From: an uncultured Planctomycetia bacterium
GTDB taxonomy: Bacteria > Omnitrophota > Gorgyraeia > JABMRG01
Assembly: GCA_964634945.1 (NCBI GenBank)
Contig: CAZWMG010000009.1
Coordinates: 1,954-65,953, forward strand
Direction of reading: 5' to 3'
Length of the DNA: 64,000 nucleotides
The position numbers and the translations under genes are program-made. Shown piece after piece: positions 19,102 through 56,162 of this stretch. The notes below the pieces were generated by a model. The model saw only the letters and a list, made by a program, of their open reading frames with translations, was not told the origin of the DNA and made no database searches. The stretch's first letter is position 1. Every line of letters starts with the position of its first letter.

Positions 19102-19191
19102 ATCCTTCTCCTTGTTAATGTTACAAATGTTAAAAAGATTACAAAGGCTACAGATCTTATAAAAAATTAGACGTTAATAAAATCTTTTAGC

Positions 19192-22917: not shown

Positions 22918-22996
22918 AAACCTAATCCTTAAATTCTAAATCCTAAGTTCTAAACTCTAAATAATATCAAATTACCAAAATTCAAATGCTCAAAAC
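22918..22996. repeat. 79-bp intergenic repeat element, copy 2 (upstream of trxB)
   Basis: aaacctaatccttaaattctaaatcctaagttctaaactctaaataatatcaaattaccaaaattcaaatgctcaaaac, with 6 mismatches versus 13132-13210. Confidence 0.7.
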
Positions 22997-23040
22997 GTTA
23001 AAAAGTTTTAAAAGTATAAAACATTGTAATCTGTTGTTTT

Positions 23041-23085
23041 TTGCAACCTTTGCAACTTTTGTAACATTTGTAACTTTTGTAACTA
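23041..23085. repeat. Array of 9-bp direct repeats (ttgcaacct/ttgtaacat type), related to the array at 15696-15741
   Basis: ttgcaacctttgcaacttttgtaacatttgtaacttttgtaac gives five tandem 9-mers. The spurious ORF 22986-23231 translates it as TFATFVTFVTFV. Confidence 0.65.
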
Positions 23086-23190
23086 CGCTTTTTTCTTTGC
23101 AGTCCTATCTTTTCCTTAATCCTTGCTTCTCGTCTCTTGCTTTCCTCTACCTTCACCTTCACCTTACATCTTACATCCGGCATCTAACAT

Positions 23191-23964
23191 CTAGAACTTG
23201 CATCTGCGCTTTGATGTGGCACTCTTGCTAATAGGCCTTATCTTTTTTTTCTTTTTTGTATCATATACAGTGGTAAATCGCACACCCCTAAAATAGGGCT
23301 TTATCATCTCAATATCTCTTCTGCTAACAGGCCTGGCACCCGATGGCCTTAATGGTGTATTTATATGGACGTGGTCAGGCTTAATAGATCTCGCAATATC
23401 AGCTATTGCTTTCGCATGCCCTATATTACTTCTTAGAAGCATGATCTGCAAAATAAGCCTACCTTTATATCGGCGCCTAAACGATCTCATGCCTCTAAGC
23501 AGTTTATGGAATTTTAAAGACTTAACGGGCCTGTTTACTTTATCTAGAATAATATCAGATGAAACGTCCAGCTTTACCTCTACCAGATCCACGCCAGAGA
23601 GTTCCTGTTGAACATCTTTTCTTCCCAAAAGCGTAGCGTTAGTAAGGACCGCTATTCGTTCTTTTCTTACACGTTTTATTATCCTTATCAGCGTACCGAG
23701 ATTTTTTGCCAGTGTGGGTTCACCTGTTCCTGAAAAAGTAATATAATCAAGCTTTCTATCAGGCAGTGATTTTATCTCAGTGATGATATCCTTTGTAGGA
23801 ACAAATATCTTTCTTCTTAGCGCTATGGGATTATGTCTGCCAACCTGACAATATACGCAGTCAAAGGTACATATCTTACGCTTGTGCGATAAAAGGTCTA
23901 TGCCCAAGGAGGCCCCTAGCCTCCATGAATTAACCGGTCCATATATGTACTTATATGTTTTCAT
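23191..23964 (-). CDS. Radical SAM domain protein with a highly basic C-terminal tail; specific function unknown
   Basis: CTFDCVYC (CxxxCxxC) 4Fe-4S/SAM motif near the N-terminus, glycine-rich SAM motif FSGTGEP, and C-terminus KKKKKIRPISKSATSKRRCKF. Its start overlaps the stop of the upstream kinase gene by 1 nt. Confidence 0.7.
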   Translation of the reverse strand: MKTYKYIYGPVNSWRLGASLGIDLLSHKRKICTFDCVYCQVGRHNPIALRRKIFVPTKDIITEIKSLPDRKLDYITFSGTGEPTLAKNLGTLIRIIKRVRKERIAVLTNATLLGRKDVQQELSGVDLVEVKLDVSSDIILDKVNRPVKSLKFHKLLRGMRSFRRRYKGRLILQIMLLRSNIGHAKAIADIARSIKPDHVHINTPLRPSGARPVSRRDIEMIKPYFRGVRFTTVYDTKKKKKIRPISKSATSKRRCKF

Positions 23965-31440: not shown

Positions 31441-31530
31441 TCAAAAGGGGACAGAGTAAAAAGGGAAAGGGGACACTCCTATTTTATTAATAAAATAGGA
31501 GTGTCCCCTTTTCTTGGGAGTGTCCCCTTT
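31441..31530 (-). terminator. Palindromic terminator structure downstream of the tRNA cluster (ggggacactcct ... aggagtgtcccc, with a third copy of the 12-mer)
   Basis: Perfect 12-bp stem ggggacactcct (31469-31480) / aggagtgtcccc (31497-31508) around an AT loop, and an extra gggagtgtcccc at 31516-31527. T-rich flank on the minus strand. Confidence 0.55.
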
Positions 31531-31535
31531 AATAA

Positions 31536-31612
31536 TGGGGCGAGCGACGGGATTTGAACCCGCGACCGCCTGAGCCACATTCAGGTGCTCTGCCAACTGA
31601 GCTACGCCCGCC
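31536..31612 (-). tRNA. tRNA-His (anticodon GTG) with encoded G-1 and CCA
   Basis: Manual fold: G-1, acceptor GCGGGCG/CGCTCGC, D-arm GCTC-AGTTGGCA-GAGC, anticodon stem CCTGA/TCAGG with loop ATGTGGC (GTG), T-arm GCGGG-TTCAAAT-CCCGT, discriminator C pairing G-1, then CCA. Confidence 0.9.
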
Positions 31613-31644
31613 ATTTAATAATCGTGGTACGCTTTTTTCGATAT

Positions 31645-31703
31645 TCGGTTTTAGGTTGTCGGTTTATGGTTATTGCCAAAAACCGTAAACCTAAGACCGT
31701 ACA
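31645..31703. repeat. About 60-bp spacer repeat upstream of tRNA-His (copy 1 of 2)
   Basis: tcggttttaggttgtcggtttatggttattgccaaaaaccgtaaacctaagaccgtaca, about 85% identical to 31931-31996. It contains the imperfect inverted repeat ggtttatgg / ccgtaaacc. Confidence 0.6.
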
Positions 31704-31846
31704 ACTAAAATCGAAGAATAGCTTGCCATGAACCCGAGGTTTGCCCTAAACCACTCACTTCCCAAAACCATTCACTTCGTTCTGGTTCTAAACAGGGTGC
31801 TCGAATATAGGGCATGAACCAAAGATTAGGAAAACCGAGTAGTTCA

Positions 31847-31923
31847 TGGCGTGCCCGGTAGGATTCGAACCTACGGCCCTCTGCTTAGAAGGCAGATGCT
31901 CTATCCAGCTGAGCTACGGGCAC
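31847..31923 (-). tRNA. tRNA-Arg (anticodon TCT)
   Basis: Manual fold: acceptor GTGCCCG/CGGGCAC, D-arm GCTC-AGCTGGATA-GAGC, anticodon stem TCTGC/GCAGA with loop CTTCTAA (TCT), T-arm GTAGG-TTCGAAT-CCTAC, discriminator G, CCA encoded. Confidence 0.9.
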
Positions 31924-31930
31924 ACTTATT

Positions 31931-31996
31931 TCGGTTATAGGTCTTAGGTTGTCGGTTTATGGTTATTGCCGAGAACCGTAAACCTAAGATTGTACA
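31931..31996. repeat. About 60-bp spacer repeat upstream of tRNA-Arg (copy 2 of 2)
   Basis: tcggttataggtcttaggttgtcggtttatggttattgccgagaaccgtaaacctaagattgtaca. Confidence 0.6.
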
Positions 31997-32004
31997 CCGA
32001 ATAA

Positions 32005-32082
32005 TGGTCGGGGCGGCCAGATTCGAACTGGCGACCCCCTGGTCCCAAACCAGGTGCTCTAGCCAAGCTGAGCCACGCCCCG
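32005..32082 (-). tRNA. tRNA-Pro (anticodon TGG)
   Basis: Manual fold: acceptor CGGGGCG/CGCCCCG, D-arm GCTC-AGCTTGGCTA-GAGC, anticodon stem CCTGG/CCAGG with loop TTTGGGA (TGG), T-arm GCCAG-TTCGAAT-CTGGC, discriminator A, CCA encoded. Confidence 0.9.
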
Positions 32083-32088
32083 ACGTAA

Positions 32089-33852
32089 TTAGTTATTATA
32101 CTTGCGCAAGCAAATATAGTCAATCAGAAAAAAAGCCACAACAAGAAAACAGAACATAACAAATATATCACCAAATCTAGTATAGAACGTAAGCAATGTA
32201 TCCGGATAGATCGTGACAAGAGATGTCTTATGTCCTGGCACAAAAATATCTTCTCCTCTAAACTCTACCCTAGCGTATATCATGCCTGTTCTATCGATAA
32301 AACAGGATAGTCCTGTATTCGCGCTACGCACAAAAGGCCTCCTGTTCTCTACTGCCCTGAAGACAGAATTTGAAGCGTGCTGATAAGCCGCACACGTCTT
32401 ACCGAACCAGGCGTCATTTGTTATATTAACCATAAAAAAAGCGCCTCTTTTTACAAACTGCCTGACCAAATCAGGGAAGATATCCTCAAAACATATGAGC
32501 ACGCTAAAATATAGAGGGGGCACTCCTTTTTCTTGATATTCCTTATCGCGCAAAGAATAGGGCTGTCCCCTTAATGGAAGCTGAAATACTGTATACTCAC
32601 TTCCTGGTATAAATTTTCCTGTTAAAGGCAGAATATCGTAAACCCAGGAAAAATATCTACTTAAGGGGATAAACTCTCCAAATAGCACTAGATGCAATTT
32701 ATTGTACTGTTTTACGATCTTGCCTTGTTTTGAAAATAAAAGAGCGCTATTATAATCACTACTATATCCGCTACTCTCCGTTGCGATAAGCGGTGTTCCC
32801 ACAAGTATTGGTATCTTGACCTTTTTGGCAAGGCCTTGGACATACTCCATAAGGCGCCTATCTCTATCCGGATAACCCGGAACGGAAGTCTCCGGCCATA
32901 TGATTATATCCGGCTTATCACCTGCCGCATCGATGGTAAGCCTTTTATATTGAGCCAGAATATAATTTCTGTATGCAGAGTCCCATTTATGCGACTGCTT
33001 AATATTGGCCTGTACAACTGAGACCTTAATGGTTTTTACAGGTATAGAATTCTCAGTAAGCGCGTCTATCCTTCTATATCCATACACGAGCACGAAAATT
33101 AGAACCGGAAAAACAACAAGAACTTGAAACAGGGGGTGCCCATTAATTTCCTTCTTAAAGGGTATCCTTGATTTCGCGAAAAAACTGCTGTTCTCTTTCC
33201 GGCATCTTATTCCCATCTTCACAACAGTAAATACTGTAAAATTTACCAATACCATTAGAAAAGATACCCCGTACGCACCTAATATGTCCGCTATCTGTAT
33301 TACCGGGAGATTCTCATACTGCGAATACGCCAATAGGTTCCAACCTATGCCACCGCCTATGTGCGAACGAAGGTATTCTAAAAGGCACCATGCAGCTGGG
33401 ATAATAACGTATTGCGCATTACCTGGACCGAGCGGAGTCGCGTGGCGTGTTACCTGGACCGAGCGGAGTCGCGTGGCGTGTTGCGTTTGTGTACACGACG
33501 CACGGCCCCGTAAAACTCCCTCAGAGCAACGGGGCAAGCGCATGACACACGACGAAAACAACCCAAAGACTCCGAAATAGAGCCCCTGGTACAGAGATAA
33601 TATTATCCATCCGGTTACGGTTACACTGACAAGCCAATACATGGAAAGAAAAAAGAATAAAAAACCACAGGCGCATGATAAGAGAAAAGCGCTTTTAGCG
33701 TCCTTTTCCTGTAACGCAAAAAAAAGCGGGACAAGCCCGATCCATGCAAAATAAGAAAGATTAAATGAGGAAAAACTAAGGGATAAGATTGCCGCTGAAA
33801 TAATAGCAGGCAAGTAACGATAGAGAATATCTGAAACGCGCGACACAAACAT
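32089..33852 (-). CDS. lnt: Apolipoprotein N-acyltransferase Lnt, carrying an in-frame 46-aa insertion encoded by a repeat element
   Basis: N-terminal TM domain with the conserved IPAAWCLLEYLRS...GWNLLAYSQ segment. C-terminal CN-hydrolase domain with IIWPETS, LICFEDIFP and NITNDAWFG motifs. Start is chosen at the ATG overlapping the secA stop (TAATG); the track's GTG at 33867 is an alternative. Confidence 0.8.
   Translation of the reverse strand: MFVSRVSDILYRYLPAIISAAILSLSFSSFNLSYFAWIGLVPLFFALQEKDAKSAFLLSCACGFLFFFLSMYWLVSVTVTGWIILSLYQGLYFGVFGLFSSCVMRLPRCSEGVLRGRASCTQTQHATRLRSVQVTRHATPLGPGNAQYVIIPAAWCLLEYLRSHIGGGIGWNLLAYSQYENLPVIQIADILGAYGVSFLMVLVNFTVFTVVKMGIRCRKENSSFFAKSRIPFKKEINGHPLFQVLVVFPVLIFVLVYGYRRIDALTENSIPVKTIKVSVVQANIKQSHKWDSAYRNYILAQYKRLTIDAAGDKPDIIIWPETSVPGYPDRDRRLMEYVQGLAKKVKIPILVGTPLIATESSGYSSDYNSALLFSKQGKIVKQYNKLHLVLFGEFIPLSRYFSWVYDILPLTGKFIPGSEYTVFQLPLRGQPYSLRDKEYQEKGVPPLYFSVLICFEDIFPDLVRQFVKRGAFFMVNITNDAWFGKTCAAYQHASNSVFRAVENRRPFVRSANTGLSCFIDRTGMIYARVEFRGEDIFVPGHKTSLVTIYPDTLLTFYTRFGDIFVMFCFLVVAFFLIDYICLRKYNN
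33420..33540. repeat. Repeat element inside the lnt ORF: 2 x 31-nt tandem repeat plus a hairpin core shared with 15532-15560
   Basis: tacctggaccgagcggagtcgcgtggcgtgt occurs twice (33420-33450, 33451-33481). Hairpin ccccgtaaaactccctcagagcaacgggg lies at 33506-33534. It is translated in frame as MRLPRCSEGVLRGRASCTQTQHATRLRSVQVTRHATPLGPGNAQYV. Confidence 0.75.
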
Positions 33853-36737
33853 TACTTTCCACAGCACTTTTTATACTTCTTACCGCTTCCACATGTACAA
33901 GGGTCGTTTCTACCTATCTTATCAGCGTCTCTTATATAGGGCTTAGATGGGCCTATATCAGGCGCCTGAGGAGGATTAGGCATCTGATTGATATCAATAG
34001 GCATGCCTCCGGCAGCGGGGGCTTCTTTGCGCATATCGCGCATTGATCCTGCTTCAGGATGTATGAGCTCCTGTGATACGCCCTTAAAGACCCCTACGGT
34101 ATCTTCTTTTTCCACGGCCTGTATCCTAAATATATACTCAAGAGAGTCCTCTCTTATGGAATCTATCATAGCCATAAACATCTCATAGGCCTCTCTCTGA
34201 TACTCAACAAGCGGGTCTCTCTGTCCATAACCTCTTAGATGAATGCCTTCGCGCAAATGATCAATACCTAAAAGATGTTCCTTCCATTTGCCATCAATAG
34301 TTTGTAGGAGAACAAACTTTGCTATCTGCTGCATCTTTTCCAAGGTGATAGATGCCTCTTTCGCGTTATAAGCGGATTTTATCTTCTCACTGATACAGCC
34401 TCTCAGTTCTTCGCGACTTAAAGACTTGATCTCATCTTCACTGAGACTTATAAGAAATTTTCCTTTGAACCTGTTTAAAAGGTCGTTGTAATCCCATTCC
34501 TCAGGATGCAGGTTCTCAGGCACGTAAATATCAAGCGCGGCGTCACTGGCATCATCTGTCATATTAAATATGTGCTCTTTTAAGCTCTCGCTTTCTAAGA
34601 TCGTCTTTCTCTCCGAGTAGATAACTTCTCTCTGCTTATTCATAACATTATCATATTCAAGGACATGCTTTCTTATCTCAAAGTTATGAGACTCTACTCT
34701 CCTCTGGGCCGTCTCAATAGACCTGGCTACTAATTTATGCTCTGCTATCGGCTGGCCTTCCTCAAGTTGAAAAAAATCTATTAAACGTGCTACCCTATCA
34801 GAGGCAAAAATCCTCATAAGATCATCTTCCAAAGATATATAGAACCTGCTTGAACCAGGGTCGCCTTGCCTGCCCGCGCGGCCCCTCAATTGGTTATCGA
34901 TACGTCTTGCCTCATGACGCTCTGAACCTATAATATGAAGGCCCCCTAAATCAACGACCGCGTTATGCTCTTGCTCGGCCTCCTGCTTAAACCTTGCTAA
35001 CATCTCATCCCGCTCATGCTCTGAGACTGCCTTGCCACCTGCCTCTATCTTCTTTACCATATCATCTGTCTTGGATTCAGGATTTCCACCAAGCAGGATA
35101 TCCGTTCCGCGGCCCGCCATGTTCGTTGCTATTGTAACAGCACCTCTAGCACCTGTCTGCGCGATAATGTGGGCCTCAAATTCGTGATATTTCGCGTTGA
35201 GCACATTATGCGGCACACCTTTAAGCCTAAGCAGTTCTCCTATGTGCTCTGACTTATCTATGGATACGGTACCAACAAGCACGGGCCTGCCTTCTTTATG
35301 CAGTCCTACTATCTCGTCTACTATGGCGTTAAATTTTTCCTTTTCTGTCCTGTAAACAACATCCGGATAATTAGTTCTCGCCAGCGGCTTGTTAGTAGGC
35401 ACCGAGACTACGTCAAGGCTATAGATCTTTAAAAACTCCTCTGACTCAGTTACGGCTGTTCCTGTCATACCTGCCAGCTTCTCATACATGCGAAAATAGT
35501 TTTGGAACGTAATAGTAGCGAGGGTCTGATTCTCCCTCTCTATCTTAACACCTTCTTTCGCCTCTATAGCCTGGTGAAGCCCGTCACTCCAACGCCTTCC
35601 GGGCATAAGCCTTCCTGTAAACTCATCGACTATAATAACCTGGCCATCTTTAATAATGTAATCGACATCAGCCTTAAAATTATTATGCGCGCGCAATGCC
35701 TGGTTAACATGGTGTTTATACTCCATAGACGAAAGCGTGTGCATATCCTTTATCCCCAAAAGTTCCGATGCCTTTGATTCACCTGCTTCAGTCAGATATG
35801 ATGTGCGGCCCTTCTCATCTATTATAAAATCTCCTGTCTCTTCTTTTGTCTGCTCATCGCGCTCACCCTTCTTAAGCCTTGGTATTATCTTATCTATCTG
35901 GTAATATTTATCCGTTGATGCCTCCGCAGGGCCTGATATAATAAGCGGGGTCCTGGCTTCATCAATAAGTATGCTATCAACCTCATCGACTATCGCGAAG
36001 AACGGGTCTCGCTGCACCATATCCTCTTTAGAGACAACCATATTATCCCGTAAATAATCAAAACCAAATTCATTATTAGTACCGTAGGTTATATCAGCGC
36101 CATAGGCGACTTTTCTCTCCTCAGGACGCATATCATGCTGTATAACGCCGACTGAAAGTCCTAGGAATTCATAGATAGGCCCCATCCATTCACAATCGCG
36201 GCGCGAAAGGTAGTCATTTACGGTGATCACGTGCACCCCTTTGCCTAAAAGGGCATTAAGATATACCGGCAGGGTAGCTACGAGAGTCTTTCCCTCGCCC
36301 GTTGTCATTTCCGCTATCCTTCCCTCATGAAGCACGATCCCGCCGATAATCTGGCTATCAAAATGACGCATATTGACTTTGCGTTTCGCTGCCTCTCGTA
36401 CAACCGCAAATGCCTCAGGGAGTATCTCATCAAATAGACTGTTATACAGCTTCTTTAAACGTTGCCTTGCCTTGTCCTTGGTTGTCTGCGTCGTAGACTC
36501 GTCAATCTGTTGCTTAATATCAGCTATATCTTTTGAAAAAGCCTCCTCTTTCTCTCTGATATTTCTACGAAATTCATCTGTCTTCGCACGTAAAGCTTCA
36601 TCAGTGAGTGAAGATATATACTCCTCCTGGCTATTTACCTTTTGCAGGATAGGCTCGAGCTTATTTAGCTCTTTCTCATTCTGTGAGCCGAAGATTATTC
36701 TTTTTATCCAGTTTATCATTTCTAAACCTCTCGCCAA
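33852..36737 (-). CDS. secA: Preprotein translocase ATPase SecA
   Basis: 961 aa with DEAD-like motor motifs ([42 protein letters not shown]) and the C-terminal zinc finger [15 protein letters not shown]. Confidence 0.95.
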
Positions 36738-37858: not shown

Positions 37859-37905
37859 AGTATTATAGAGGATACCACAAATCACACTATATTTACAAGT
37901 GAAAT

Positions 37906-37962
37906 GATATAGGGGACACTCCTGAACGCGGAGTAAAATCTAATCTCAGGGGTGTCCCCTAT
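37906..37962 (-). terminator. Palindromic terminator immediately after the MGMT-family gene, sharing the ggggacac core with the tRNA terminator
   Basis: atataggggacactcctga ... tcaggggtgtcccctatat: a 19-bp stem with one G-U pair and a 19-nt loop. It overlaps the stop codon of the 37959-38225 gene. Confidence 0.5.
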
Positions 37963-38225
37963 ATATTTACACCCTCTTTCTTCAGTAAGTGCGTCTTTAC
38001 CTGTACGCCTTTTTGAAACCCGCCTATTGCACCGTTGGATCTGATCACACGATGGCAGGGCACTTTTCCTATATATGGATTCTTATTCAACGCGCTTCCT
38101 ACTGCCCGATATGCATTTGGAGAACCTATCTGTTCCGCTATTTGCTTATAGCTTCGCACCTCGCCCCGAGGGATCCTGCTCACCGCTTCATAGACCTTCT
38201 GTTGAAATAAGGTCAGATCAGTCAT
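37959..38225 (-). CDS. Stand-alone MGMT-family DNA-binding domain protein (O6-alkylguanine-DNA alkyltransferase C-terminal domain, active-site PCHRV present)
   Basis: 88 aa: ...YKQIAEQIGSPNAYRAVGSALNKNPYIGKVPCHRVIRSNGAIGGF. It has the conserved Cys acceptor motif but no N-terminal domain. Confidence 0.75.
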   Translation of the reverse strand: MTDLTLFQQKVYEAVSRIPRGEVRSYKQIAEQIGSPNAYRAVGSALNKNPYIGKVPCHRVIRSNGAIGGFQKGVQVKTHLLKKEGVNI

Positions 38226-47588: not shown

Positions 47589-47600
47589 TAAAAAAACAAT

Positions 47601-47650
47601 TCAAGACCGGTTCTCAAGCACAACCGATCGTGCTTGAGAACCGGTCTTGA
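47601..47650. repeat. 50-bp perfect palindrome (21-bp stem, 8-nt loop), copy 1; a probable terminator of the 47801-50356 gene
   Basis: tcaagaccggttctcaagcac aaccgatc gtgcttgagaaccggtcttga, followed on the minus strand by attgtttttttattg. A near-identical copy lies at 52079-52126. Confidence 0.7.
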
Positions 47651-47800
47651 AGCTATATTTGTAATTGCTTATACCTCTACCTTTCCAGCGCAGGCCTTTT
47701 TGTTGCTGCTAAGGCTTTTTTAAGGAACGTAAAAAATGAGGGACGGACCCAATTAAGGACCCGTCCCCCTGGCAACTGTTCAACTCTATGCTTATTAAGC

Positions 47801-50356
47801 TTATGCCGCTATCAATGCCGCTAAAGCCTGTCTATGTAGCTGCTCATAATATGCCTCGTCTATGGCAACCGGCATAGGTAAGTCAAGAATGAAAACCGAA
47901 TTCTTCAAAAATGCCTCCAGTAATTTCGGAGACAAAGGAGACTTTGTTATAAATCTATACATCTGCGATATTATTCCGTTTAACACAGGTTTAGTGTCCT
48001 GGCTGTAACCTAATAACCCCTTCGCTAGAACAATGACCTGTTCTAATGGCAGGTATCCGTCCTGTGTAACCGATTGTATATCTATACGCCGCGATATATC
48101 TTCAACGGATTTGCTCGATATGACTATGGTATGGCCTTTACCACCTATTTTAGCATTGTATTGGCTCAAAAGCCTGACCTGGCAACCAAGTTTTGTCTGA
48201 AGCGCTTCCAGGTATGGGTTTGACTTATCAAGCATAGTAAGGAGTATTTTCTGATTAGCTGGTATATCTTTATCATTTATAACTATTGTACCTGTTGTCT
48301 CTGGAAGCAACGCGTCTTCGGCAACAATACTCTGTACCGCGGTCATTGTGTCAAGTGATGCCTGGACCTGACTAGCCTGCTCTGCCACAGCTATAGCAGC
48401 ATCCGGAGACAGACTCTTTATCTCTTCAAGTTTATTAATGGTCTCCTTGCATGCCCCTATCTGCCTTAACAGCATATCTGCATTAAGCTCAGGCATTGTG
48501 TTGGCACCTGTAAAAGCATATGTTGAACCAGAAAGATATGCCATGGCCTTTGCTATATCTTTTTCATAACCTGCTGAAGATTGCTTGATTGTTTGTTGTG
48601 CATCAAGACTTATTATCGTATTTTCAAGGCGAATTTTTTCTAATTCTACTCGAATTATTTCTTTTTCCAGCTCGACAACTTTAGCATCTGTTATGCTGCT
48701 GCCCTTTACATCGGTGTTGCGTGTTGGTTGGCCATTCACTGTTTCCTTTGCTCCACGGTCATTCGTTTTCGCCGCTAAAAGGTCTTTCTGCAAGTCTGTA
48801 AGCTTACCCTCTGCATTGGCAAGCCTACTTTGAGCAACTAAGAGTTTCGCATTATTGATTTTACTCAGGTCTACATTCATATCAGATAAGCTGTCAAATA
48901 GTCCGCTTGCTGCGTTATAACTATCTCGATCAAGACTACTAACTGCTGATGTAGCATCACTTATATCTCTAGGTTGTATCTGAGCGCCGATGTTAATAGC
49001 GTTATCAATAATTGTTTTCATACGATCAGCATCATTTGTACTAATAGTGCCTTCTGCTGCCATATTATCAAACATGCCCCTAGCCTCAGACCTTATCTCT
49101 ATTAATCTTTCAACAGCTGCTTCACGTACAGCAAGTTCCGGAGATTGCCACTGCGAAATAAGAATTAATACGGCTTCTTCATCAACCTTGAGGCCGCTAG
49201 AGGATGTCTTGACTAATGATTCTGACTTTGCAAGCATCTCTATGGCCTGCTCAAAACTAGCTATATATGATTGCGCTTGACCTATAGCCTGTCCAAGTTC
49301 TGCAATAACATTTGGATCCTTGTTTTCTTCTCGAAGCGCCGCTTCCAAGGCTTCCAACTCAGAAACTGTATCTTGGATCTGCAACGCAAATACGGTTTCA
49401 GGGTCTTTGCCATTAGCCTTGAGGTTATCTGTTATAGAATGAAAGATACCTGTAATAAACATACGTCTTACTTGATCAGTTGCTTCACTAATGCTCTTAA
49501 CGAGCAATGGTATAGCGTTAATGCCTTTTCCTTCTATATTTCTAGCAGTCTTTACAAGAAGCCACATAGATGTTTTTGGATCCAGGAATCGCTCAATCAT
49601 GCGGTCAAGATCTGCATCCGCATACAAATAACCGCTTGATGAAGTCTTTTCTAATATATCGCTGGGTAATATCTTTTGCATAGTTATCTCTATAGATGCC
49701 TGTAATATCGGATCAATCTCATTATCGCGAAGTATCTCAAGGTCAGGCAGCATCATCTCTGCAGCAGGGCCCATTTCTGATAATCTCCTCAGGGCATCTT
49801 GCAGGATATATGGATTGCCGCTTTCCTTATACTCTTCTAACTGAGGAGATATAGCTACTAACGCTTCGGTTATACCGGCAGATGAGGTCCTTGAAACCTG
49901 AAGAAGATTTTCAATAGATTCTCTCGGAGGCAATCCTACAAATACGCCAAGTTGGGTGGAGAGTGGCTCATTTTTGCTTATAACATCTGATATCGCGCCG
50001 GATTTATCGCTGGCTGACATAACCACCAAAAACTCTGATTTATCCGAATTATCAGTAAATGAGACTAGATATACAGGCATATTCGCTGAAGGGATATCAA
50101 GTTTTTGCGCGTTCTCAGGAATATCGCCGTCTTTTAGTGCCTTAGCTGCTCTAGCCATGCTATCCATACTACTAAGGCGAGCCTGATAAGCGTCATGCTC
50201 CGGCAGAGCAGGCTCATACCCAGGTTGCCTTACAGCAAGGTTTGCGATAGCGCAAGGCGCTATCTGTTCAGGCTGGTATACAGCGCTCGCGCTGAATACA
50301 AATATGCCTATCAGGAAACATACCTGCAACATAATGACAAATTTAGCGTTCTTCAT
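47801..50356 (-). CDS. Large secreted/periplasmic protein (851 aa), signal peptide then predominantly alpha-helical/coiled-coil; function unknown
   Basis: N-terminus MKNAKFVIMLQVCFLIGIFVFSASA is a Sec signal. It has long heptad-like stretches (e.g. LEKEIIRVELEKIRLENTIISL) and no motifs I recognise. Confidence 0.6.
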   Translation of the reverse strand: MKNAKFVIMLQVCFLIGIFVFSASAVYQPEQIAPCAIANLAVRQPGYEPALPEHDAYQARLSSMDSMARAAKALKDGDIPENAQKLDIPSANMPVYLVSFTDNSDKSEFLVVMSASDKSGAISDVISKNEPLSTQLGVFVGLPPRESIENLLQVSRTSSAGITEALVAISPQLEEYKESGNPYILQDALRRLSEMGPAAEMMLPDLEILRDNEIDPILQASIEITMQKILPSDILEKTSSSGYLYADADLDRMIERFLDPKTSMWLLVKTARNIEGKGINAIPLLVKSISEATDQVRRMFITGIFHSITDNLKANGKDPETVFALQIQDTVSELEALEAALREENKDPNVIAELGQAIGQAQSYIASFEQAIEMLAKSESLVKTSSSGLKVDEEAVLILISQWQSPELAVREAAVERLIEIRSEARGMFDNMAAEGTISTNDADRMKTIIDNAINIGAQIQPRDISDATSAVSSLDRDSYNAASGLFDSLSDMNVDLSKINNAKLLVAQSRLANAEGKLTDLQKDLLAAKTNDRGAKETVNGQPTRNTDVKGSSITDAKVVELEKEIIRVELEKIRLENTIISLDAQQTIKQSSAGYEKDIAKAMAYLSGSTYAFTGANTMPELNADMLLRQIGACKETINKLEEIKSLSPDAAIAVAEQASQVQASLDTMTAVQSIVAEDALLPETTGTIVINDKDIPANQKILLTMLDKSNPYLEALQTKLGCQVRLLSQYNAKIGGKGHTIVISSKSVEDISRRIDIQSVTQDGYLPLEQVIVLAKGLLGYSQDTKPVLNGIISQMYRFITKSPLSPKLLEAFLKNSVFILDLPMPVAIDEAYYEQLHRQALAALIAA

Positions 50357-50368
50357 TTTAATCTCCTT

Positions 50369-51916
50369 TTATATATTCTGTTTATAGCTTTTTGTATTTT
50401 CTTTTGCTTTTTTAATAAACTTTTCAAATTCAGTCTCTTCATCAAGAAGAACCGATTTATAAGGATTATCCAAATAAAGTTTCTCAACCTTTGGAGTAAC
50501 TACTATATATGATACTTGTCTTTCTTTTAAAAGTTTTGTTATCCCGTCTGTATGAAAACCACCTGATACCAAAACAGCGATATCAGTCTTATTTTTCTTC
50601 ATCTGATCAAGTGTGTTATGAACCAGGATACTATCGCGTTCCTGCGCGATCTTGTAGAACTTTTCTAGATCAGGGATTTTCGACGCTATCTTCCTAAAAG
50701 CCGGGTCGAGCTTATACTGGACCTTGTATTTATTCGCCGCGTCTGATATGAAATTAATAATATAAGACGGGGTAAACTCTCTTTTGTTCTCTCTGTAGTA
50801 TTGCAACGTCTCTTTTGTAAGCTTAAGGGCGAAGAGGTCCTTTAAGACATCGAGCGTGTATGAGAACCTGTCTATATCCCGCTGCGTGCTGTCTGTAAAA
50901 ATCTTATCCTTAAGGCTCGCCTCTATCTGATCTATTTCATTAAAGAGCGCTATATTATTTATCTCAGAATATTGCTTTATGTAGTCAACATATCTATGTA
51001 AGTCCGCGTAATCCGCCTCCATTGCCAAATCCGGCCCCCTTAAAGATATATCTTCAAGAAAACCATAGAATTCAAGGGCGCTTATCTTTTCTGCCTTGAA
51101 AAATAGGCTCTTATCTAATAATTCTGATAAGCTTTTTTTATCAAGTTTATCACCTAAATAATCCAGATACTCTGAGCGCTGGGTATCAACCTCTAAAAAA
51201 TCTATATCTGATTCCTTTTCAAGCACTTCTGTAAGCTTAACAAAGTTCGGGTAATCCCGTTGTTTTAGACTGTATTCTAAAATAAGTTTATTTAAATAGG
51301 CTATGTATGATGTAAAATCCATATCCTCAGCCTTGTAATCCTGGATATTTTTATCGAGTTCAAGCAGCTCCTTTGAATAGGCCTTGAATTTCAGTCTCTC
51401 TAGGATCTCCTTTATATTATTATAATATCTTTCATTATCTGCCTGGCCTTTTAGCGATTCCATATAGGCGTCTACATTCTCCTGGTGCAATTTGGCATCA
51501 TCCGCGCCAAAAAATGAAAAACCGCTATGTTTCATCATATGAGCAAAACCAGCGCCATCAAGCTCTCCGGTCTTTACAAAATATCGGGCAACACTCTCTT
51601 TTATATCGTCATTAGGGCGCTTTGAATAAGGCGCTGTTTCAAGCTGGCCAACAGAGCCTTCTATCGATACTAAATCGAGATTATATTTATCAATAAGTTC
51701 ATTAATTATATTATAGACAGATATCTGCGCGTCATAATTGCAATGCAGATCCTGTATATGAACTACTATTCCGCTGTCGCTACCTACAAAATGGCTATCT
51801 CTGATAGTGCCGTTAGCCTCTGATACCATCTCTCTTATATTATTAATAGACTGTGCATTTGCTGTAGAGGCACATACCATAGATAATAATGTTATAATAC
51901 CTAATATTCTCTTCAT
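50369..51916 (-). CDS. Secreted protein (about 515 aa), function unknown
   Basis: Start is chosen at MKRILGIITLLSMVCASTANA, a signal peptide; the track start is 15 codons upstream. It is preceded by a consensus sigma70 promoter. No family is recognised with confidence. Confidence 0.55.
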   Translation of the reverse strand: MKRILGIITLLSMVCASTANAQSINNIREMVSEANGTIRDSHFVGSDSGIVVHIQDLHCNYDAQISVYNIINELIDKYNLDLVSIEGSVGQLETAPYSKRPNDDIKESVARYFVKTGELDGAGFAHMMKHSGFSFFGADDAKLHQENVDAYMESLKGQADNERYYNNIKEILERLKFKAYSKELLELDKNIQDYKAEDMDFTSYIAYLNKLILEYSLKQRDYPNFVKLTEVLEKESDIDFLEVDTQRSEYLDYLGDKLDKKSLSELLDKSLFFKAEKISALEFYGFLEDISLRGPDLAMEADYADLHRYVDYIKQYSEINNIALFNEIDQIEASLKDKIFTDSTQRDIDRFSYTLDVLKDLFALKLTKETLQYYRENKREFTPSYIINFISDAANKYKVQYKLDPAFRKIASKIPDLEKFYKIAQERDSILVHNTLDQMKKNKTDIAVLVSGGFHTDGITKLLKERQVSYIVVTPKVEKLYLDNPYKSVLLDEETEFEKFIKKAKENTKSYKQNI

Positions 51917-52000
51917 AATATAAGGTGCCTTTTCTGCTGTTCCCATCCTTGTTATATACATTTTCTTACCTTAATATAACATTTTAAAAGTCTTTGATTA

Positions 52001-52029: not shown

Positions 52030-52078
52030 GTTTTTTGTGATTTTTTTGTGATTTTTTGTTACATAGGCCTACTACATG

Positions 52079-52126
52079 CAAGACCGGTTCTCAAACACAA
52101 TCGATTGTGCTTGAGAACCGGTCTTG
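52079..52126. repeat. About 48-bp palindrome, copy 2 of the 47601-47650 element, 10 nt downstream of the 1341-aa gene stop
   Basis: caagaccggttctcaaacac aatcgatt gtgcttgagaaccggtcttg. It shares flanking gaagcta with copy 1 and has a self-complementary loop aatcgatt. Confidence 0.7.
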
Positions 52127-52136
52127 AAGCTACAAT

Positions 52137-55100
52137 TTAGAATCTATACTGGCCGCCTAATGTAAGCCCGAAGGTCTCGAGCTTATTCTCAGGGGTCTCT
52201 ATGTTTACACTTCCATTATCAATACGATCCGCTCTTTCAAGATGCTGCAGATCCCAAAAACCGCCAAGATTAATATCAAATTTCTCAGAAAGATTGTAGT
52301 CACATCCACCTTCAGCATGCCATATAGTGCCCTGATCAGAGGTAGTCCTGCCAAGCTCGCTATTGTTTATAGGCACATATACAAGCGGCGCCCAATATCC
52401 GCTGCCATAGAAATTCATATTATTAACCGGCCCTGCCTCGATCCTCGCGCCTAAACCAGCATATGAAACATTGAAATTCTCATCAGCCTCGCCAAGCTGA
52501 GGCACTGTCGTAGATGTTGTAGTGATATTGCCTCTTGAAAATTCTACTCTCCTGTATCCTATATTAACCAGAGGGGCTACTGATAAGTATTTAGACTCAC
52601 TGGTTATTGCCCATCCTATATTAGCGTTAACATCAGCGCCTCTAAAACTCATATCATCTGTCTGGTAAGTACCTCTACCCTCATAATCCCATTTCTCTTC
52701 ATCTGTTAATGTGGTAAATAAGCCTAACCGTAGGCTACCTTCCCAATACTCTCTATCGTAAGCATCAAGGCCTAGATCGCATCTTAAGAGATAGTTATCC
52801 CAATCTGATTCTATTGGGGCTATATCCGCCTCTTCCTTATATTTTGCCCATCCTGTTGATAGCTTTGCTATGAATGTAGCTCCCGGAATAGCCGGGTTTA
52901 ATGGGCCCAGAGGGGTAGGGGTGGCGTTTTCTACATACTCAGAATCACCCTGTCTGTCTGATGGGCCAAAGGTACCTGTATACGCTACCCTTACAATATG
53001 CCTTGTATCAAGCGCGTTGATATCATCGTGCTGTTCAGGGGTATCATAATCATAGCCTACGTAGCTGCCATACATTATCCTTAAATGCTGATCCTGATTG
53101 AGCTGATAATCAAATGAGGCGAATATATTATGGTGGCCGTCAAAATGAGTGCCCTGATCAACAACAAATTCCTTATACAGGTCTCTCTGCCTAGTATATT
53201 GGTACAGGAAGCCAAGTGTAGTATTAGGACATGGTTGATATTCAAACTCAATAGCCTGCGCAGTAGGATTATCATCTATCGCCATGGCGTATTTGTTCTC
53301 ATTATATGTATATTTTAAAGTAATCTTAAGCGGGTCAAACGGAAAATAGGTAAATCGCGCTTTATATATATTATAATACGGATATTCCGGAAGGCCAAAG
53401 GCGGATTGATCATACAAAAAAGGAACCACCCTATCCCATACTATGCCATCCTTATAATAATCACCTACCCATACATTGTTTAAAAGTCCGCGCGGATAAT
53501 CCTTAGGGTCATTAGTAGTCTCAAAGATAGCTAAACCTGAAAAATAATCCGTAAAATCGTACTCCAGGCCTCCTGAAAAAGCGCCTATTGAAGGGTCCTT
53601 GCCTTCTTCTATGGCCACATTCTCAAGCCATATATCATCATAGGCAAAGTAATCCGTAAAGGCGCTATAAGAGCTTTTCGCGTTTATAAGCGGGTCTATA
53701 CCCTGTTTAGTCTTTGGAAGATGCTTGTAAAAAGCCAGTCCTTTAAGGGTCATCTTTTCTGTGGGCTGATAAGTTCCTTCTAATCTGTATACATCTTCTA
53801 TATGCTCATTGCCATCACTATAGACTGTCCTAAAATCAAACCTTGTATCTACATTCTGATCCGGAAACTCCGCTTTCGCGTTAACATTAAAGGCGTTTCT
53901 ACCTATGTCCATTCCGTTTCCAAACATTATCTCTTCGTTTCGAGGATCTATATCCTCGAAATATATATGTTTCGCGTACTCAAACTCTTTTCTTGTAAAT
54001 CTATAGTTACTCAAACCCGGGAAGAATTGATCGCCCATGCTGGCAAAGGATGCCTTAAGCTCATACCTATCTGCTGTCCCACTGGTTAGCGCGATAGGGC
54101 CCTGATTCTTTAAGCCAAAACTTCCAGCGTAACCTGTATAATCGTTATGATATCCACTGGCCTCTTCTGTATTCATATTACTTACGGCAAACTCCCCTAA
54201 TAGCTCTGTATTGTCAAAAAGCCGATAAGACCCGTCTAATGCGCCGAGATTATTCATCGCCTCTAATGACTGGTGGCGCATACCACCTTTAAAGGTATAC
54301 AGGCCTCCGAGTGTAAATCTATCAGATATTGGGGTCTTTACTCTTACCGCGGCCGGTATATTTGTTGCTTGGGTATATTCATCCCATAGGCTTCGCGGTG
54401 TCGCTACTACCATATCAACAGACGCGCCATTGGTAAAATCAGCCTTAAATGACGCTCCGCGAAGAAATGTAAGAAAATCATCATCACTATCCCTTGAGAC
54501 AAATGAGAGATTGCGTACCCATTGCCCCTTCTTTAAAGGCTGTCTTGAACCGTTAAACCCCTCAGGGGCAGAGGTGCCTGTTCTGTTAAATTCTTTACTT
54601 TGCTCATAGCGGTCGAGCCACGCGCCTTCTTCCCACCATACCTTGTTATTGGAAAGGCTCATAGGATCATCTGATGTAAGCGCCTCTTCCTGGCCCGCCA
54701 TCGCGAATACCTTTGCCTTGTAGGGTTCCGAATTATACTCAACCCATAATTTACGTATAGGCACATACATCCTGTCTATCTCTTCTTCCGGCACATTAAA
54801 TGTATTGGTACCCCAATCCGTAAGCCCTGAGTAACGCCCTACGGAGGTCTTATCTTCTTTAACCTTGTTCTCCTCTATACTTACAACATCTCCTCTGTCT
54901 GTCCTGTATGTCTCATTTATTGTACTTCTAACATTTGACCAATACTTATAGTCTATCTCAACATTATCTCCATTTGAGCCTGAGACAGATACCCTCTTTT
55001 TTCCAACAAATGTCCAAGGGTCTATTGTCATCTGACTAAAACCGCTTAATGTATCGGTTATGTGTACATCCATATCCATCTTAAGCCTGGAATATATCGC

Positions 55101-56162
55101 CTTGTCATAACTATTCTGCCTGTCTTTTCCAAAAATATATCTCCAGCTCGTATCTCCGGGCATATTATGATAATCCGCGTTAGCGTCTTTCCATAGAAAG
55201 TCATCTTCAGTCACACCGAATGCCATGCGATACTCACCTCTTATAACAGAAGGCGCGATATGACTGTTTATATTCTCTGTGCCTTCCTGTATTTTACTAT
55301 TTATACCATCTGAGAATTTCTCAAAAAAAGGAAGCTCACATCTAAAGGGCTCTTTCACATAAGGCGCTGGTGAAAGTTTTCTTTCTACGGCAACGGTTGA
55401 GGGATATTTAAGAGTAGCTGAAGGCGCTGGTTCCGGCTTTTTTGTTAATGAAGAAGGGAGTTTTTCACTCGGCTCTGGCCTTGCTGACACATAAGGCTTT
55501 TTGCTTGGTTCTGGTTGGGTTGATGTGTATGGCTTCTTGCTTGGTTCTGGTTGAGTATAGGGCCTCTTGCTTGGTTCTTTTTGAGTTGACGTGTAGGGCC
55601 TTTTGCTTGGTTCAGGTTGAGTATAGGGCCTTTTGCTTGGTTCAGGTTGAGTATAGGGCCTTTTGCTTGGTTCAGGATCTGAATTATTATAATAGGAATC
55701 CCTGCTTGACTGCTGAGCTACAACACGACGTGTTGGCTTATTTATAACAACATCCTGACTTTTCTGAGGCCCTAATGCGGATACAGGCCTCTTTAATGCA
55801 TACTCCTTATAGCTAACCGCGCGATTCATCGCGTCTTTTCTGGCCTGTTGTTTACTCTTGTTAACATGGCCCTTATTTGTCAGCATAGCCCTTGACATCG
55901 CTATTTTTAAACGCGCTTCTTCTGAATTTGGCTGAATTATAAGCGCTCTTTCATATGATTCTATCGCGGATTCATATTGCTTGTCATCAAGATAACCTTT
56001 AGCGCGATCCATATAATATTTGTAAGCGCTCTTATATTGGCACGGCGTAAAAAGTGTCTTCTTGTTTGTTTCAGAGGCACCCGCAAAATCCGATAAGAAC
56101 AAAATAAGCGCTATAAGTATAATTATATATATATTTTTTTTCATTATGTTTTTCCGCCACAC
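52137..56162 (-). CDS. Giant outer-membrane-type protein (1341 aa): signal peptide, TPR region, proline-rich PEPSKRPYTQ repeats, and a ~900-aa beta-barrel-like C-terminal domain ending ...GGQYRF
   Basis: Signal peptide IIILIALILFLSDFAGASE. TPR-like helices (YKYYMDRAKGYLDDKQYESAIESYERALIIQPN). Seven or more copies of PEPSK(R/K)PYT. Then about 900 aa of alternating-hydrophobicity strands rich in Y/G/D/N/T, with a C-terminal aromatic residue (F) typical of OMP barrels. Confidence 0.6.
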   Translation of the reverse strand: MWRKNIMKKNIYIIILIALILFLSDFAGASETNKKTLFTPCQYKSAYKYYMDRAKGYLDDKQYESAIESYERALIIQPNSEEARLKIAMSRAMLTNKGHVNKSKQQARKDAMNRAVSYKEYALKRPVSALGPQKSQDVVINKPTRRVVAQQSSRDSYYNNSDPEPSKRPYTQPEPSKRPYTQPEPSKRPYTSTQKEPSKRPYTQPEPSKKPYTSTQPEPSKKPYVSARPEPSEKLPSSLTKKPEPAPSATLKYPSTVAVERKLSPAPYVKEPFRCELPFFEKFSDGINSKIQEGTENINSHIAPSVIRGEYRMAFGVTEDDFLWKDANADYHNMPGDTSWRYIFGKDRQNSYDKAIYSRLKMDMDVHITDTLSGFSQMTIDPWTFVGKKRVSVSGSNGDNVEIDYKYWSNVRSTINETYRTDRGDVVSIEENKVKEDKTSVGRYSGLTDWGTNTFNVPEEEIDRMYVPIRKLWVEYNSEPYKAKVFAMAGQEEALTSDDPMSLSNNKVWWEEGAWLDRYEQSKEFNRTGTSAPEGFNGSRQPLKKGQWVRNLSFVSRDSDDDFLTFLRGASFKADFTNGASVDMVVATPRSLWDEYTQATNIPAAVRVKTPISDRFTLGGLYTFKGGMRHQSLEAMNNLGALDGSYRLFDNTELLGEFAVSNMNTEEASGYHNDYTGYAGSFGLKNQGPIALTSGTADRYELKASFASMGDQFFPGLSNYRFTRKEFEYAKHIYFEDIDPRNEEIMFGNGMDIGRNAFNVNAKAEFPDQNVDTRFDFRTVYSDGNEHIEDVYRLEGTYQPTEKMTLKGLAFYKHLPKTKQGIDPLINAKSSYSAFTDYFAYDDIWLENVAIEEGKDPSIGAFSGGLEYDFTDYFSGLAIFETTNDPKDYPRGLLNNVWVGDYYKDGIVWDRVVPFLYDQSAFGLPEYPYYNIYKARFTYFPFDPLKITLKYTYNENKYAMAIDDNPTAQAIEFEYQPCPNTTLGFLYQYTRQRDLYKEFVVDQGTHFDGHHNIFASFDYQLNQDQHLRIMYGSYVGYDYDTPEQHDDINALDTRHIVRVAYTGTFGPSDRQGDSEYVENATPTPLGPLNPAIPGATFIAKLSTGWAKYKEEADIAPIESDWDNYLLRCDLGLDAYDREYWEGSLRLGLFTTLTDEEKWDYEGRGTYQTDDMSFRGADVNANIGWAITSESKYLSVAPLVNIGYRRVEFSRGNITTTSTTVPQLGEADENFNVSYAGLGARIEAGPVNNMNFYGSGYWAPLVYVPINNSELGRTTSDQGTIWHAEGGCDYNLSEKFDINLGGFWDLQHLERADRIDNGSVNIETPENKLETFGLTLGGQYRF
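55468..55680. repeat. Tandem 30-33-nt coding repeats (encoding PEPSKRPYTQ units) within the 1341-aa gene
   Basis: gtatagggccttttgcttggttcaggttga occurs three times perfectly (55591-55680), preceded by about four diverged copies. The plus-strand spurious ORF 55442-55747 reflects the same periodicity. Confidence 0.8.

Follow-up and report, generated by a model that had tools for sequence, protein, structure and literature searches.

Introduction

Palindromic repeats that lie in frame inside bacterial genes are best known from Rickettsia, where Rickettsia palindromic elements (RPEs) interrupt dozens of genes (PMC10969869), and repetitive extragenic palindromes (REPs) with GTAG or CGTC tags have been described within genes of several phyla (Di Nocera et al. 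2013, PMC3733652). A 64,000-nt stretch of contig CAZWMG010000009.1 from an uncultured bacterium (GTDB lineage Omnitrophota; the window hereafter) was analyzed, in which lnt, the gene for apolipoprotein N-acyltransferase (Lnt), carries a 146-nt repeat-derived segment. This segment probably combines modules of a family of small, REP-like palindromic repeats, a family that coding loops can accommodate. The family is a new one within the known kind of intragenic palindromic repeats, set apart from RPEs and REPs by its tags and sizes. With it, palindromic repeats that lie in frame are now seen in free-living uncultivated phyla as well, and in a membrane enzyme of the lipoprotein pathway.

Several described systems resemble this family in part. 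Like RPEs, its copies are palindromes that occur in intergenic DNA as well as in frame within unrelated housekeeping genes, where they form extra loops compatible with function (PMC10969869; PMC3733652); recurrent in-frame insertion was seen in Lnt and at least seven other gene families. RPEs, however, are ~100–150 bp long, occur only in Rickettsia, and encode a conserved peptide per family, whereas the unit described here is 33 nt, has other hosts, and is translated in three frames, with the frame differing between orthologues. REPs are GC-rich stem-loops of 20–40 nt with a short unpaired tag, mostly intergenic, arranged singly, in pairs, or in clusters, and present in distant phyla (PMC3733652). 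The 29-nt core described here, with 12 pairs, agrees with that stem-loop, but its tag is CYTG (Y, C or T), with no GTAG or CGTC consensus adjoining either end. The family also differs from REPs in its two-tier stem, conserved T/TTT internal loop, GNA triloop, and heptamer-array flanks, and no RAYT was found in the ~0.8 Mb searched.

Miniature inverted-repeat transposable elements and their like (Coxiella QMITE, ERIC, Correia) are likewise non-autonomous small repeats that form in-frame fusions with host open reading frames (ORFs), and the 7-nt direct repeats at about half of the hairpin copies resemble target-site duplications. The 33-nt unit is nevertheless far below their ~50–500 bp, its "inverted repeats" are just a 6- to 7-bp outer stem, and the direct repeats may reflect heptamer arrays. 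Arrays of 7-nt units, mostly intergenic and occasionally within ORFs, recall the TAACTGA repeats of Beggiatoaceae, Cyanobacteria, and Bacteroidetes, which have a patchy cross-phylum distribution and a mechanism that is not known (PMC4679880), but the hairpin family uses many heptamers (CGCAATA, CGTCGTG, TACGTTC, GTCTGTG) together with a conserved hairpin. The segment in lnt also holds a perfect tandem duplication, with a unit of 31 nt and a single viable copy number. Tandem units within the genes of Borgs are reportedly multiples of three, unlike this one. Borgs do share with this locus perfect tandem repeats of recent origin that lie in ORFs and add disordered segments to the proteins (PMC9879509).

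The repeat-derived segment in lnt

lnt lies on the minus strand (ORF 32089..33867) and was identified by Pfam domains, solved structures, and synteny. Its product combines the LNT_N membrane domain (1.5e-34) with a CN_hydrolase domain (1.3e-25) that carries the catalytic Glu-Lys-Cys motifs, and it matches solved apolipoprotein N-acyltransferase structures in the PDB at ~1e-28, with the WPE, NKxHLVxFGEF, and C-F/Y-E motifs lining up. secA is directly upstream, an order also found in relatives (L001–L006). The true start is likely at 33852, which would give 587 aa and overlap the secA stop as in orthologues. An identical 587-aa protein (P0001, 100%) is present in the public protein set, and the named Lnt homologues belong to "Candidatus Omnitrophota/Omnitrophica". 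E326, K390, and C459 are invariant, and the window Lnt keeps all 130 invariant alignment columns. The ratio of nonsynonymous to synonymous substitution rates (dN/dS) is 0.15 against orthologue P0002 and 0.20 against P0003, with 0.18 between those two. By these measures lnt is under purifying selection and is not decaying, and a preliminary description of the locus, in which the gene was taken to be probably functional, seems to have been right on this point.

The segment spans positions 33409–33554 on the minus strand and encodes SCVMRLPRCSEGVLRGRASCTQTQHATRLRSVQVTRHATPLGPGNAQY. Its GC content is 62%, compared with 40.5% in the remainder of lnt, and the one sense frame of three that is open across it is the frame in use. 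In sense order it reads CGTCGTG TGTCATG CG, CTTG, CCCCGTTGCTCTGAGGGAGTTTTACGGGG, CCGTGCG TCGTGTA CACAAAC GCAA, (CACGCCACGCGACTCCGCTCGGTCCAGGTAA)x2, and TGCGCAATAC. The left flank (33539–33554) is of a heptamer type that recurs as a CGTCGTG array at 15608–15624 and beside hairpins in two other loci (L014/L035). It is followed by a CTTG tag (33535–33538) directly 5' of the 29-nt core CCCCGTTGCTCTGAGGGAGTTTTACGGGG (33506–33534), which has a 6- to 7-bp outer stem, a T/TTT internal loop, a 5-bp inner stem, and a triloop. This core scores 54.4 bits (E 9e-17) against R1, the covariance model of the family, and is three transitions off the family consensus. The first 7 nt of the right flank (33481–33505) match those before the tag at five of seven positions. 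Next come two perfect copies of the 31-nt unit CACGCCACGCGACTCCGCTCGGTCCAGGTAA (33419–33480) and a CGCAATA-heptamer-type end, TGCGCAATAC (33409–33418), which supplies the codon for the invariant Tyr153. A CGCAATA array is also present at 15676–15691, and the same motif closes loops or inserts in P0009, P0021, L015, L023, and L040. Cores of the family fold as DNA at −8.6 to −9.2 kcal/mol (z ~−3.2 to −3.7), with −8.6 kcal/mol and z −3.7 for the lnt copy; neither strand of the whole 166-nt region beats shuffled folds (z −0.26 and +0.25), and the predicted structured part is the 29-nt core only. Predicted tryptic peptides of the region include ASCTQTQHATR, SVQVTR, and HATPLGPGNAQYVIIPAAW....

The closest orthologues (P0002 and P0003; 73% and 70% identity) have ~45 nt at the site where the window has 146 nt, and the DNA on both sides aligns base for base. 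All seven orthologues from P0002 to P0008 (61%–73% identity) carry a 14-aa loop there, such as FNRRFMLHAPRFAGY in P0002. The preliminary description had reported a repeat element in frame inside lnt, and both the 54-bit match of the hairpin to the family and the lack of the segment in the closest orthologues bear this out. The insertion point is confirmed against P0002 to P0008, and the 46-aa string given for the insert is present in the translation. The size is revised from a 138-nt insertion to a 146-nt segment that replaces ~45 nt, which leaves the gene longer by 102 nt, or 34 codons.

In E. coli, Lnt spans the membrane with eight helices, its N and C termini both lie in the cytoplasm, and Arg123 is found where helix 5 (H5) meets the cytoplasm (PMC5500888). 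Residue 154 of the window Lnt aligns with E. coli residue 126, and four helices are predicted before the insert by an AlphaFold2 model, so that the segment is placed in the cytoplasmic loop between helices 4 and 5 (H4-H5). The model is poor overall (mean predicted local distance difference test score [pLDDT] 59) and was used for helix boundaries and the low-confidence loop only; in it, residues 113–149 form a coil with pLDDT ~30 between helices 84–110 and 148–170. The eight arginines of the insert would fit the cytoplasmic side by the positive-inside rule. Of the two sides named in the preliminary description, periplasmic and cytoplasmic, the prediction thus favors the latter.

Other Omnitrophota lnt genes use heptamer arrays to encode this loop. 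P0021 has (CGCAATA)x5, translated as TQYAIRNTQY, and P0038 has (ATATACT)x4 together with a GC-rich palindrome. The H4-H5 loop therefore appears to be a tolerant hot spot that was already occupied by repeats in other Omnitrophota, and the segment in the window would represent the current state of a repeat-encoded loop with fast turnover; it may not be a single clean insertion of 138 nt.

The 31-nt tandem duplication

Tandem Repeats Finder reported a 31-nt unit at 33419–33482 with 2.1 copies and 100% matches, the perfect 2 x 31-nt repeat of the preliminary description. The unit matches just these two places in the window, with none expected from shuffled sequence, and no copy was found elsewhere in the window, in the fetched loci, or in metagenome contigs (searched with a 24-mer probe); the units carry no fold signal. 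Because 31 is not a multiple of three, the frame shifts from one copy to the next (translated as HATRLRSVQV and TRHATPLGPGN), and the third frame of the unit ends in TAA. When lnt was rebuilt with 0, 1, 3, 4, or 5 units, a stop appeared at codons 152–163, and only two units gave the full ORF.

With 62 of 62 positions identical, the duplication is recent and, judging from the rebuilt genes, needed for the present frame. The recent expansion that had been proposed for it is thus retained, while ongoing slippage, proposed as an alternative, would break the ORF. A single-unit ancestor would have to have differed by another indel, for which one 7-nt heptamer would suffice (71 + 7 = 78), and we propose such a compensation because a heptamer shift of this kind is seen between the oxidoreductase orthologues described below. 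Since only one 31-nt copy number is viable, reads across the locus could serve as a simple test of whether Omnitrophota can dispense with lnt.

A link between CGGTCCAGG in the 31-nt unit and a tRNA-Arg in locus L060 was suspected but found no support. An in-frame tandem repeat at 55501–55676 (minus-strand ORF 52137..56162, 1,341 aa) has a 30-nt unit, (PEPSKRPYTQ)n, and is ordinary, in contrast to the 31-nt unit in lnt.

A hairpin family in several phyla

A 30-nt hairpin pattern matches the window twice, at 33506–33535 on the minus strand and at 15531–15560 on the plus strand, with none expected in shuffles, and the similarity between the two copies reaches 43 nt. The intergenic copy (15520..15570, plus strand) has a canonical core and TACGTTC heptamer flanks, scores 67.2 bits with R1, and sits between two minus-strand genes of type II/IV secretion or pilus systems. 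A plus-strand ORF (15496..15759) reads LPRCSEGALRG through this hairpin, exactly as in the preliminary description, in which the core was placed at 15532–15560. R1 found no further significant copy over the 64 kb. The tandem repeat had been described as part of the same repeat element as the hairpin; the hairpin does belong to the family, and the 31-nt unit does not.

Among species-representative genomes, a degenerate form of the pattern gave 22 matches in 20 loci, almost all with the same 29 nt. WOR-3 records account for 13 matches in 12 loci, with UBA3073 contributing 11 matches in 10 loci on 8 contigs; the remaining matches are in Stahlbacteria, "Planctomycetia" metagenome-assembled genomes (MAGs), and one Saccharibacteria contig. 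With the inner stem left free, the pattern was found in 74 metagenome loci. Two of the matched loci were dropped as family copies, one being the native HPxxGDxxYG motif of RluD (L034) and the other a chance match (L105). R1 gave no copy on 39 kb of contigs from the closest Lnt relatives, an uninformative result. Viral contigs contained two pattern matches, one clearly by chance and one doubtful, and showed no sign of phage carriage. In Rfam 15, only tRNAs reached the gathering threshold, and a permissive threshold gave nothing better than E=3 on either copy. The hairpin sequence was not found in the literature searched, and the family deserves a proper census.

Pairs of the inner stem vary yet remain paired among 44 distinct cores (GCTCC/GGAGC, GTCGC/GCGAC, GTTGC/GCAAC, GCCGC/GCGGC, GGGGC/GCCCC, and GTTAT/ATAAC). 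In an alignment of 42 sequences, 95% of cells are paired, and four of the five inner pairs have changed on both sides (50 cells). None of 500 shuffles reached the observed values, and controls in which the alignment was slid fell to 38%–51% paired. Because the second search pattern already prescribed the outer stem and the bulges, the covariation is informative for the inner stem only. The first pattern left the bulges free, and nearly all of its matches still had T and (C/T)TTT there.

In 25 of the 44 cores the loop is GAA, closed by C:G. GNA triloops of the d(GCGAAGC) type form unusually stable DNA mini-hairpins. G.T pairs in the inner stem number 24 on the CCCCGTTG...TTTACGGGG ("TTG...TTT") strand and 6 on its complement; these and the loop counts refer to distinct sequences rather than independent events. 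Orientation to transcription is mixed, with the bottom strand transcribed in 31 copies and the top strand in 19; the strand transcribed more often is the complement, which has the fewer G.T pairs. Together, these observations are a lead toward a structure that is read from a single strand of the DNA and not from mRNA. A role as terminator was rejected, given that most copies have no T-run after the hairpin and that the orientation is mixed.

The 4 nt directly 5' of the stem are CTTG in 34 of 76 distinct copies, CCTG in 33, and another sequence in 9. Flanking heptamers are specific to the genome: GTCTGTG-type in WOR-3, CGTATTG/CGCAATA and GTGCGYC in "Planctomycetia" contigs, and TACGTTC and CGTCGTG in the window. 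The 7-nt stretches that border the element, one upstream of the tag and one downstream of the hairpin, agree at five or more of seven positions in 36 of the 76 copies, and their mean identity is 3.41, compared with 2.56 ± 0.13 (maximum 3.04) in shuffled pairings. Hairpin copies in tandem have a period of 40 nt, or 33 + 7. The 7-nt direct repeats fit target duplication and residence in heptamer arrays equally.

Copies in other genes and conservation of DNA over peptide

Copies were scored as lying within a gene when the frame was free of stops for at least 60 codons on both sides (~80 distinct copies). By this measure the hairpin is in frame in no fewer than eight housekeeping genes besides lnt, with at least seven further gene families represented and with Pfam domains that span the inserts. 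The hosts are a PyrK/GltD-like (NAD-binding) oxidoreductase (L015/L090, L023), a metallophosphoesterase (L033), an NAD-dependent epimerase (L040), RF2 (L041; insert 39 nt), an RsmI-type methylase (L073; 33 nt), a MiaB-like radical-SAM enzyme (L075), and a phosphoglucomutase-like protein with two tandem copies (L029/L056). No clear target duplication accompanies the smallest of these inserts, those of RsmI and RF2. Both orientations and three frames are translated, giving LPRCSEGxLRG, PRKxxxxQRGR, and PVKLLRSNGA. When translated, the consensus 33-mer of 11 codons is open in five of six frames.

The two oxidoreductase orthologues L090 and L023 provide a clean case of DNA-level conservation that overrides the reading frame. 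Their flanking coding DNA is 73%–76% identical (657/890), and the hairpin, tag, and CGCAATA repeats are identical at 49 of 49 positions, a run with a probability of ~4e-7 at 74% identity. The two genomes place one heptamer on opposite sides of the hairpin, upstream or downstream, without any difference in total length. As a consequence of this +7/−7 shift, the hairpin is read as PVKLLRSNGA in one orthologue and as PRKAPSEQRGR in the other. The identity of the DNA points to selection at the DNA level, homogenization from other copies, or repeated insertion into the same array, and its persistence despite the change of frame argues against a role for the peptide. Such inserts inflate and distort protein predictions from MAGs, in which they show up as unusual loops, extended N-termini, and spurious ORFs (15496..15759 is one), and a covariance model of the hairpin could flag them.

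Origin of the segment and alternative explanations

We propose that the basic unit of the family is a 33-nt module, composed of the CYTG tag and a 29-nt bulged hairpin with a GNA triloop, that is embedded in short heptamer arrays and that came to lie in the coding sequence for the cytoplasmic H4-H5 loop of Lnt. Because the 11-codon unit is free of stops in five of six frames and the loop tolerates extra length, the reading frame is not broken, and translation of the element yields a disordered, Arg-rich loop. Indels in the slippage-prone flanks would then alter its length, by ±7 nt where heptamers are gained or lost and here by the 31-nt duplication, for which slippage at a short AA microhomology is a possible origin. 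Of the resulting combinations, selection on Lnt would retain only those that are free of stops and sum to a multiple of three. The modules may be selfish or neutral, they probably form hairpins as single-stranded DNA, and they might spread either by a trans-acting enzyme encoded elsewhere or by recombination or slippage between heptamer arrays. Seen this way, the lnt case is nothing unusual: a family of this kind has met a cytoplasmic loop that tolerates it.

Several observations weigh against this account. The 31-nt unit, 42% of the segment, is outside the hairpin family, only two hairpin copies are visible within the 64-kb window, the phylum labels on which the distribution depends are titles of MAG records, and the outer stem and bulges of the hairpin were set by the search patterns. 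E. coli RayT had no match at E<=10 in a phmmer search of ORFs of at least 70 aa from the window and 105 loci (~0.8 Mb), a search that a single-copy gene elsewhere in the genomes would escape, and no protein family recurs within 1.5 kb of the copies. Finally, orthologue P0009 (57% identity) has a different GC-rich insert with edges in common with that of the window, TTTTCGTC(A/G)TG... and ...CGCAATAC. Part of the segment could therefore be old and lost in P0002 to P0008, or it may have been gained independently in the window and P0009.

A more far-reaching version of the modular account is possible but doubtful. It holds that CYTG-CCCCGTTG...TTTACGGGG with heptamer flanks is an undescribed cross-phylum element kept as a single-stranded DNA hairpin, that its 11-codon, almost stop-free unit lives in essential genes where ±7-nt indels adjust the frame, and that a dedicated enzyme copies and homogenizes it across Omnitrophota, WOR-3, Stahlbacteria, and Planctomycetota. 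This version draws on the mini-hairpin loop (C-GAA-G), on the uneven share of G.T pairs between the two strands, and on the 49 of 49 identical positions against 74% in the flanks.

The preliminary description had seen in the locus a miniature element exapted into coding sequence. An Arg-rich peptide or a hairpin in lnt mRNA or DNA could have gained a selected role, for example in translational pausing during membrane insertion, in mRNA stability, or as a protein-binding site, and it is true that in another host gene the element has changed far less than the coding DNA around it, that the hairpin folds well, and that the loop is at the cytoplasmic mouth of H5, near a residue that seals the E. 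coli enzyme. Against such a role, the peptide shows no sign of function and is not conserved, orthologues of another host gene translate identical hairpin DNA in two frames, the host genes are unrelated, and the orientation to transcription is mixed (31 versus 19). The closest Lnt orthologues presumably work without the insert, to judge from their sequences, and the lnt copy has drifted three transitions from the consensus. Exaptation is therefore unlikely, and the claim is not upheld.

Growth of a native, lineage-specific loop by local slippage alone, with convergent likeness to the copy at 15531, is very unlikely. Related Lnt loops do use heptamer arrays, as in P0021 and P0038, and the 31-nt duplication is itself a local event, but the 30-nt core fits an exact family consensus from other phyla where no chance matches are expected, reaches 54 bits against the family model, and is missing from P0002 to P0008.

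An assembly artefact or a pseudogene in the population is very unlikely. The evidence does come from a single contig, on which a miscounted repeat would hide a frameshift because other copy numbers from 0 to 5 break the frame. Typical reads and k-mers are longer than the 62 nt of tandem repeat, however, and lnt continues collinearly on both sides; no stop interrupts the 587 codons, the dN/dS (0.15–0.20) is like that of P0002 versus P0003, and all invariant residues are retained.

Other repeats in the window and related loci

A second palindrome, CCTGCCTGCCGGCAGGCAGG, at 15656..15675 has CGCAATA-heptamer flanks, the same flank architecture as the hairpin, and R1 gives a weak match around it (15646–15683). 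The N-termini RTCLPAGR of Lnt orthologues P0005 and P0008 look as if encoded by this palindrome, judging from back-translation. A similar GC-rich, palindrome-like stretch (GRQAAGR) stands beside the hairpin in the MiaB-like insert of L075. In seven loci (L007, L012, L017, L038, L063, L069, and L099), a second hairpin with the same outer stem and another interior (CCCCGTAGAAGCGCAGCTATTCAACGGGG, CCCTGTGGAGTAGCAAAACTTACTCCACGGGG) often precedes the first, and these mosaic clusters resemble bacterial interspersed mosaic elements. In L060 (140–365), the hairpin is flanked by tRNA-Arg(GCG) on one side and by a second copy of the 3' half of this tRNA on the other, a layout much like that of att sites around an integrated element.

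Further tandem arrays of 7 or 9 nt, apparently between genes, occur at 11778–11834, 13216–13371, 15501–15527, 15608–15624, 15676–15691, 15697–15741, 19117–19163, 22921–22962, 23039–23084, and 23163–23192; their position relative to ORFs was examined for the 15.5-kb arrays only. Their units mostly differ (ATCTAGT x8, GCATCCA, TACGTTC, CGTCGTG, CGCAATA, and TTTGTAACC x5), and nonamers of the TTTGTAAC type are found in three arrays.

lnt itself holds a second in-frame inverted-repeat insert of about +14 aa in the nitrilase domain (32515..32571, minus strand; AGGGGACAGCCCT...AGGAGTGCCCCCT). Its peptide, RGQPYSLRDKEYQEKGVPP, is unrelated to the hairpin segment, and pLDDT is low at residues 433–449. 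The same arms build palindromes at 31466–31511 and 37899–37972, and inverted-repeat arms of this type have eight matches against 0.56 expected. Lnt orthologues P0016, P0021, P0029, and P0038 have N-terminal extensions and a C-terminal insert from other GC-rich repeats (CEPQAKQSKAH, VIASRRRSNP), although some of the extensions may stem from miscalled starts. Three tRNA genes lie just downstream of lnt (31539–32082), near an 83-nt spacer repeat whose two copies (31626–31708 and 31919–32001) are 83% identical. A near-perfect palindrome of 62 nt (TTCAAGACCGGTTCTCAAGCAC...GTGCTTGAGAACCGGTCTTGAA) occurs at 47599–47660 and 52076–52137, with 90% identity between the copies, which bracket a two-gene block (47801–51961).

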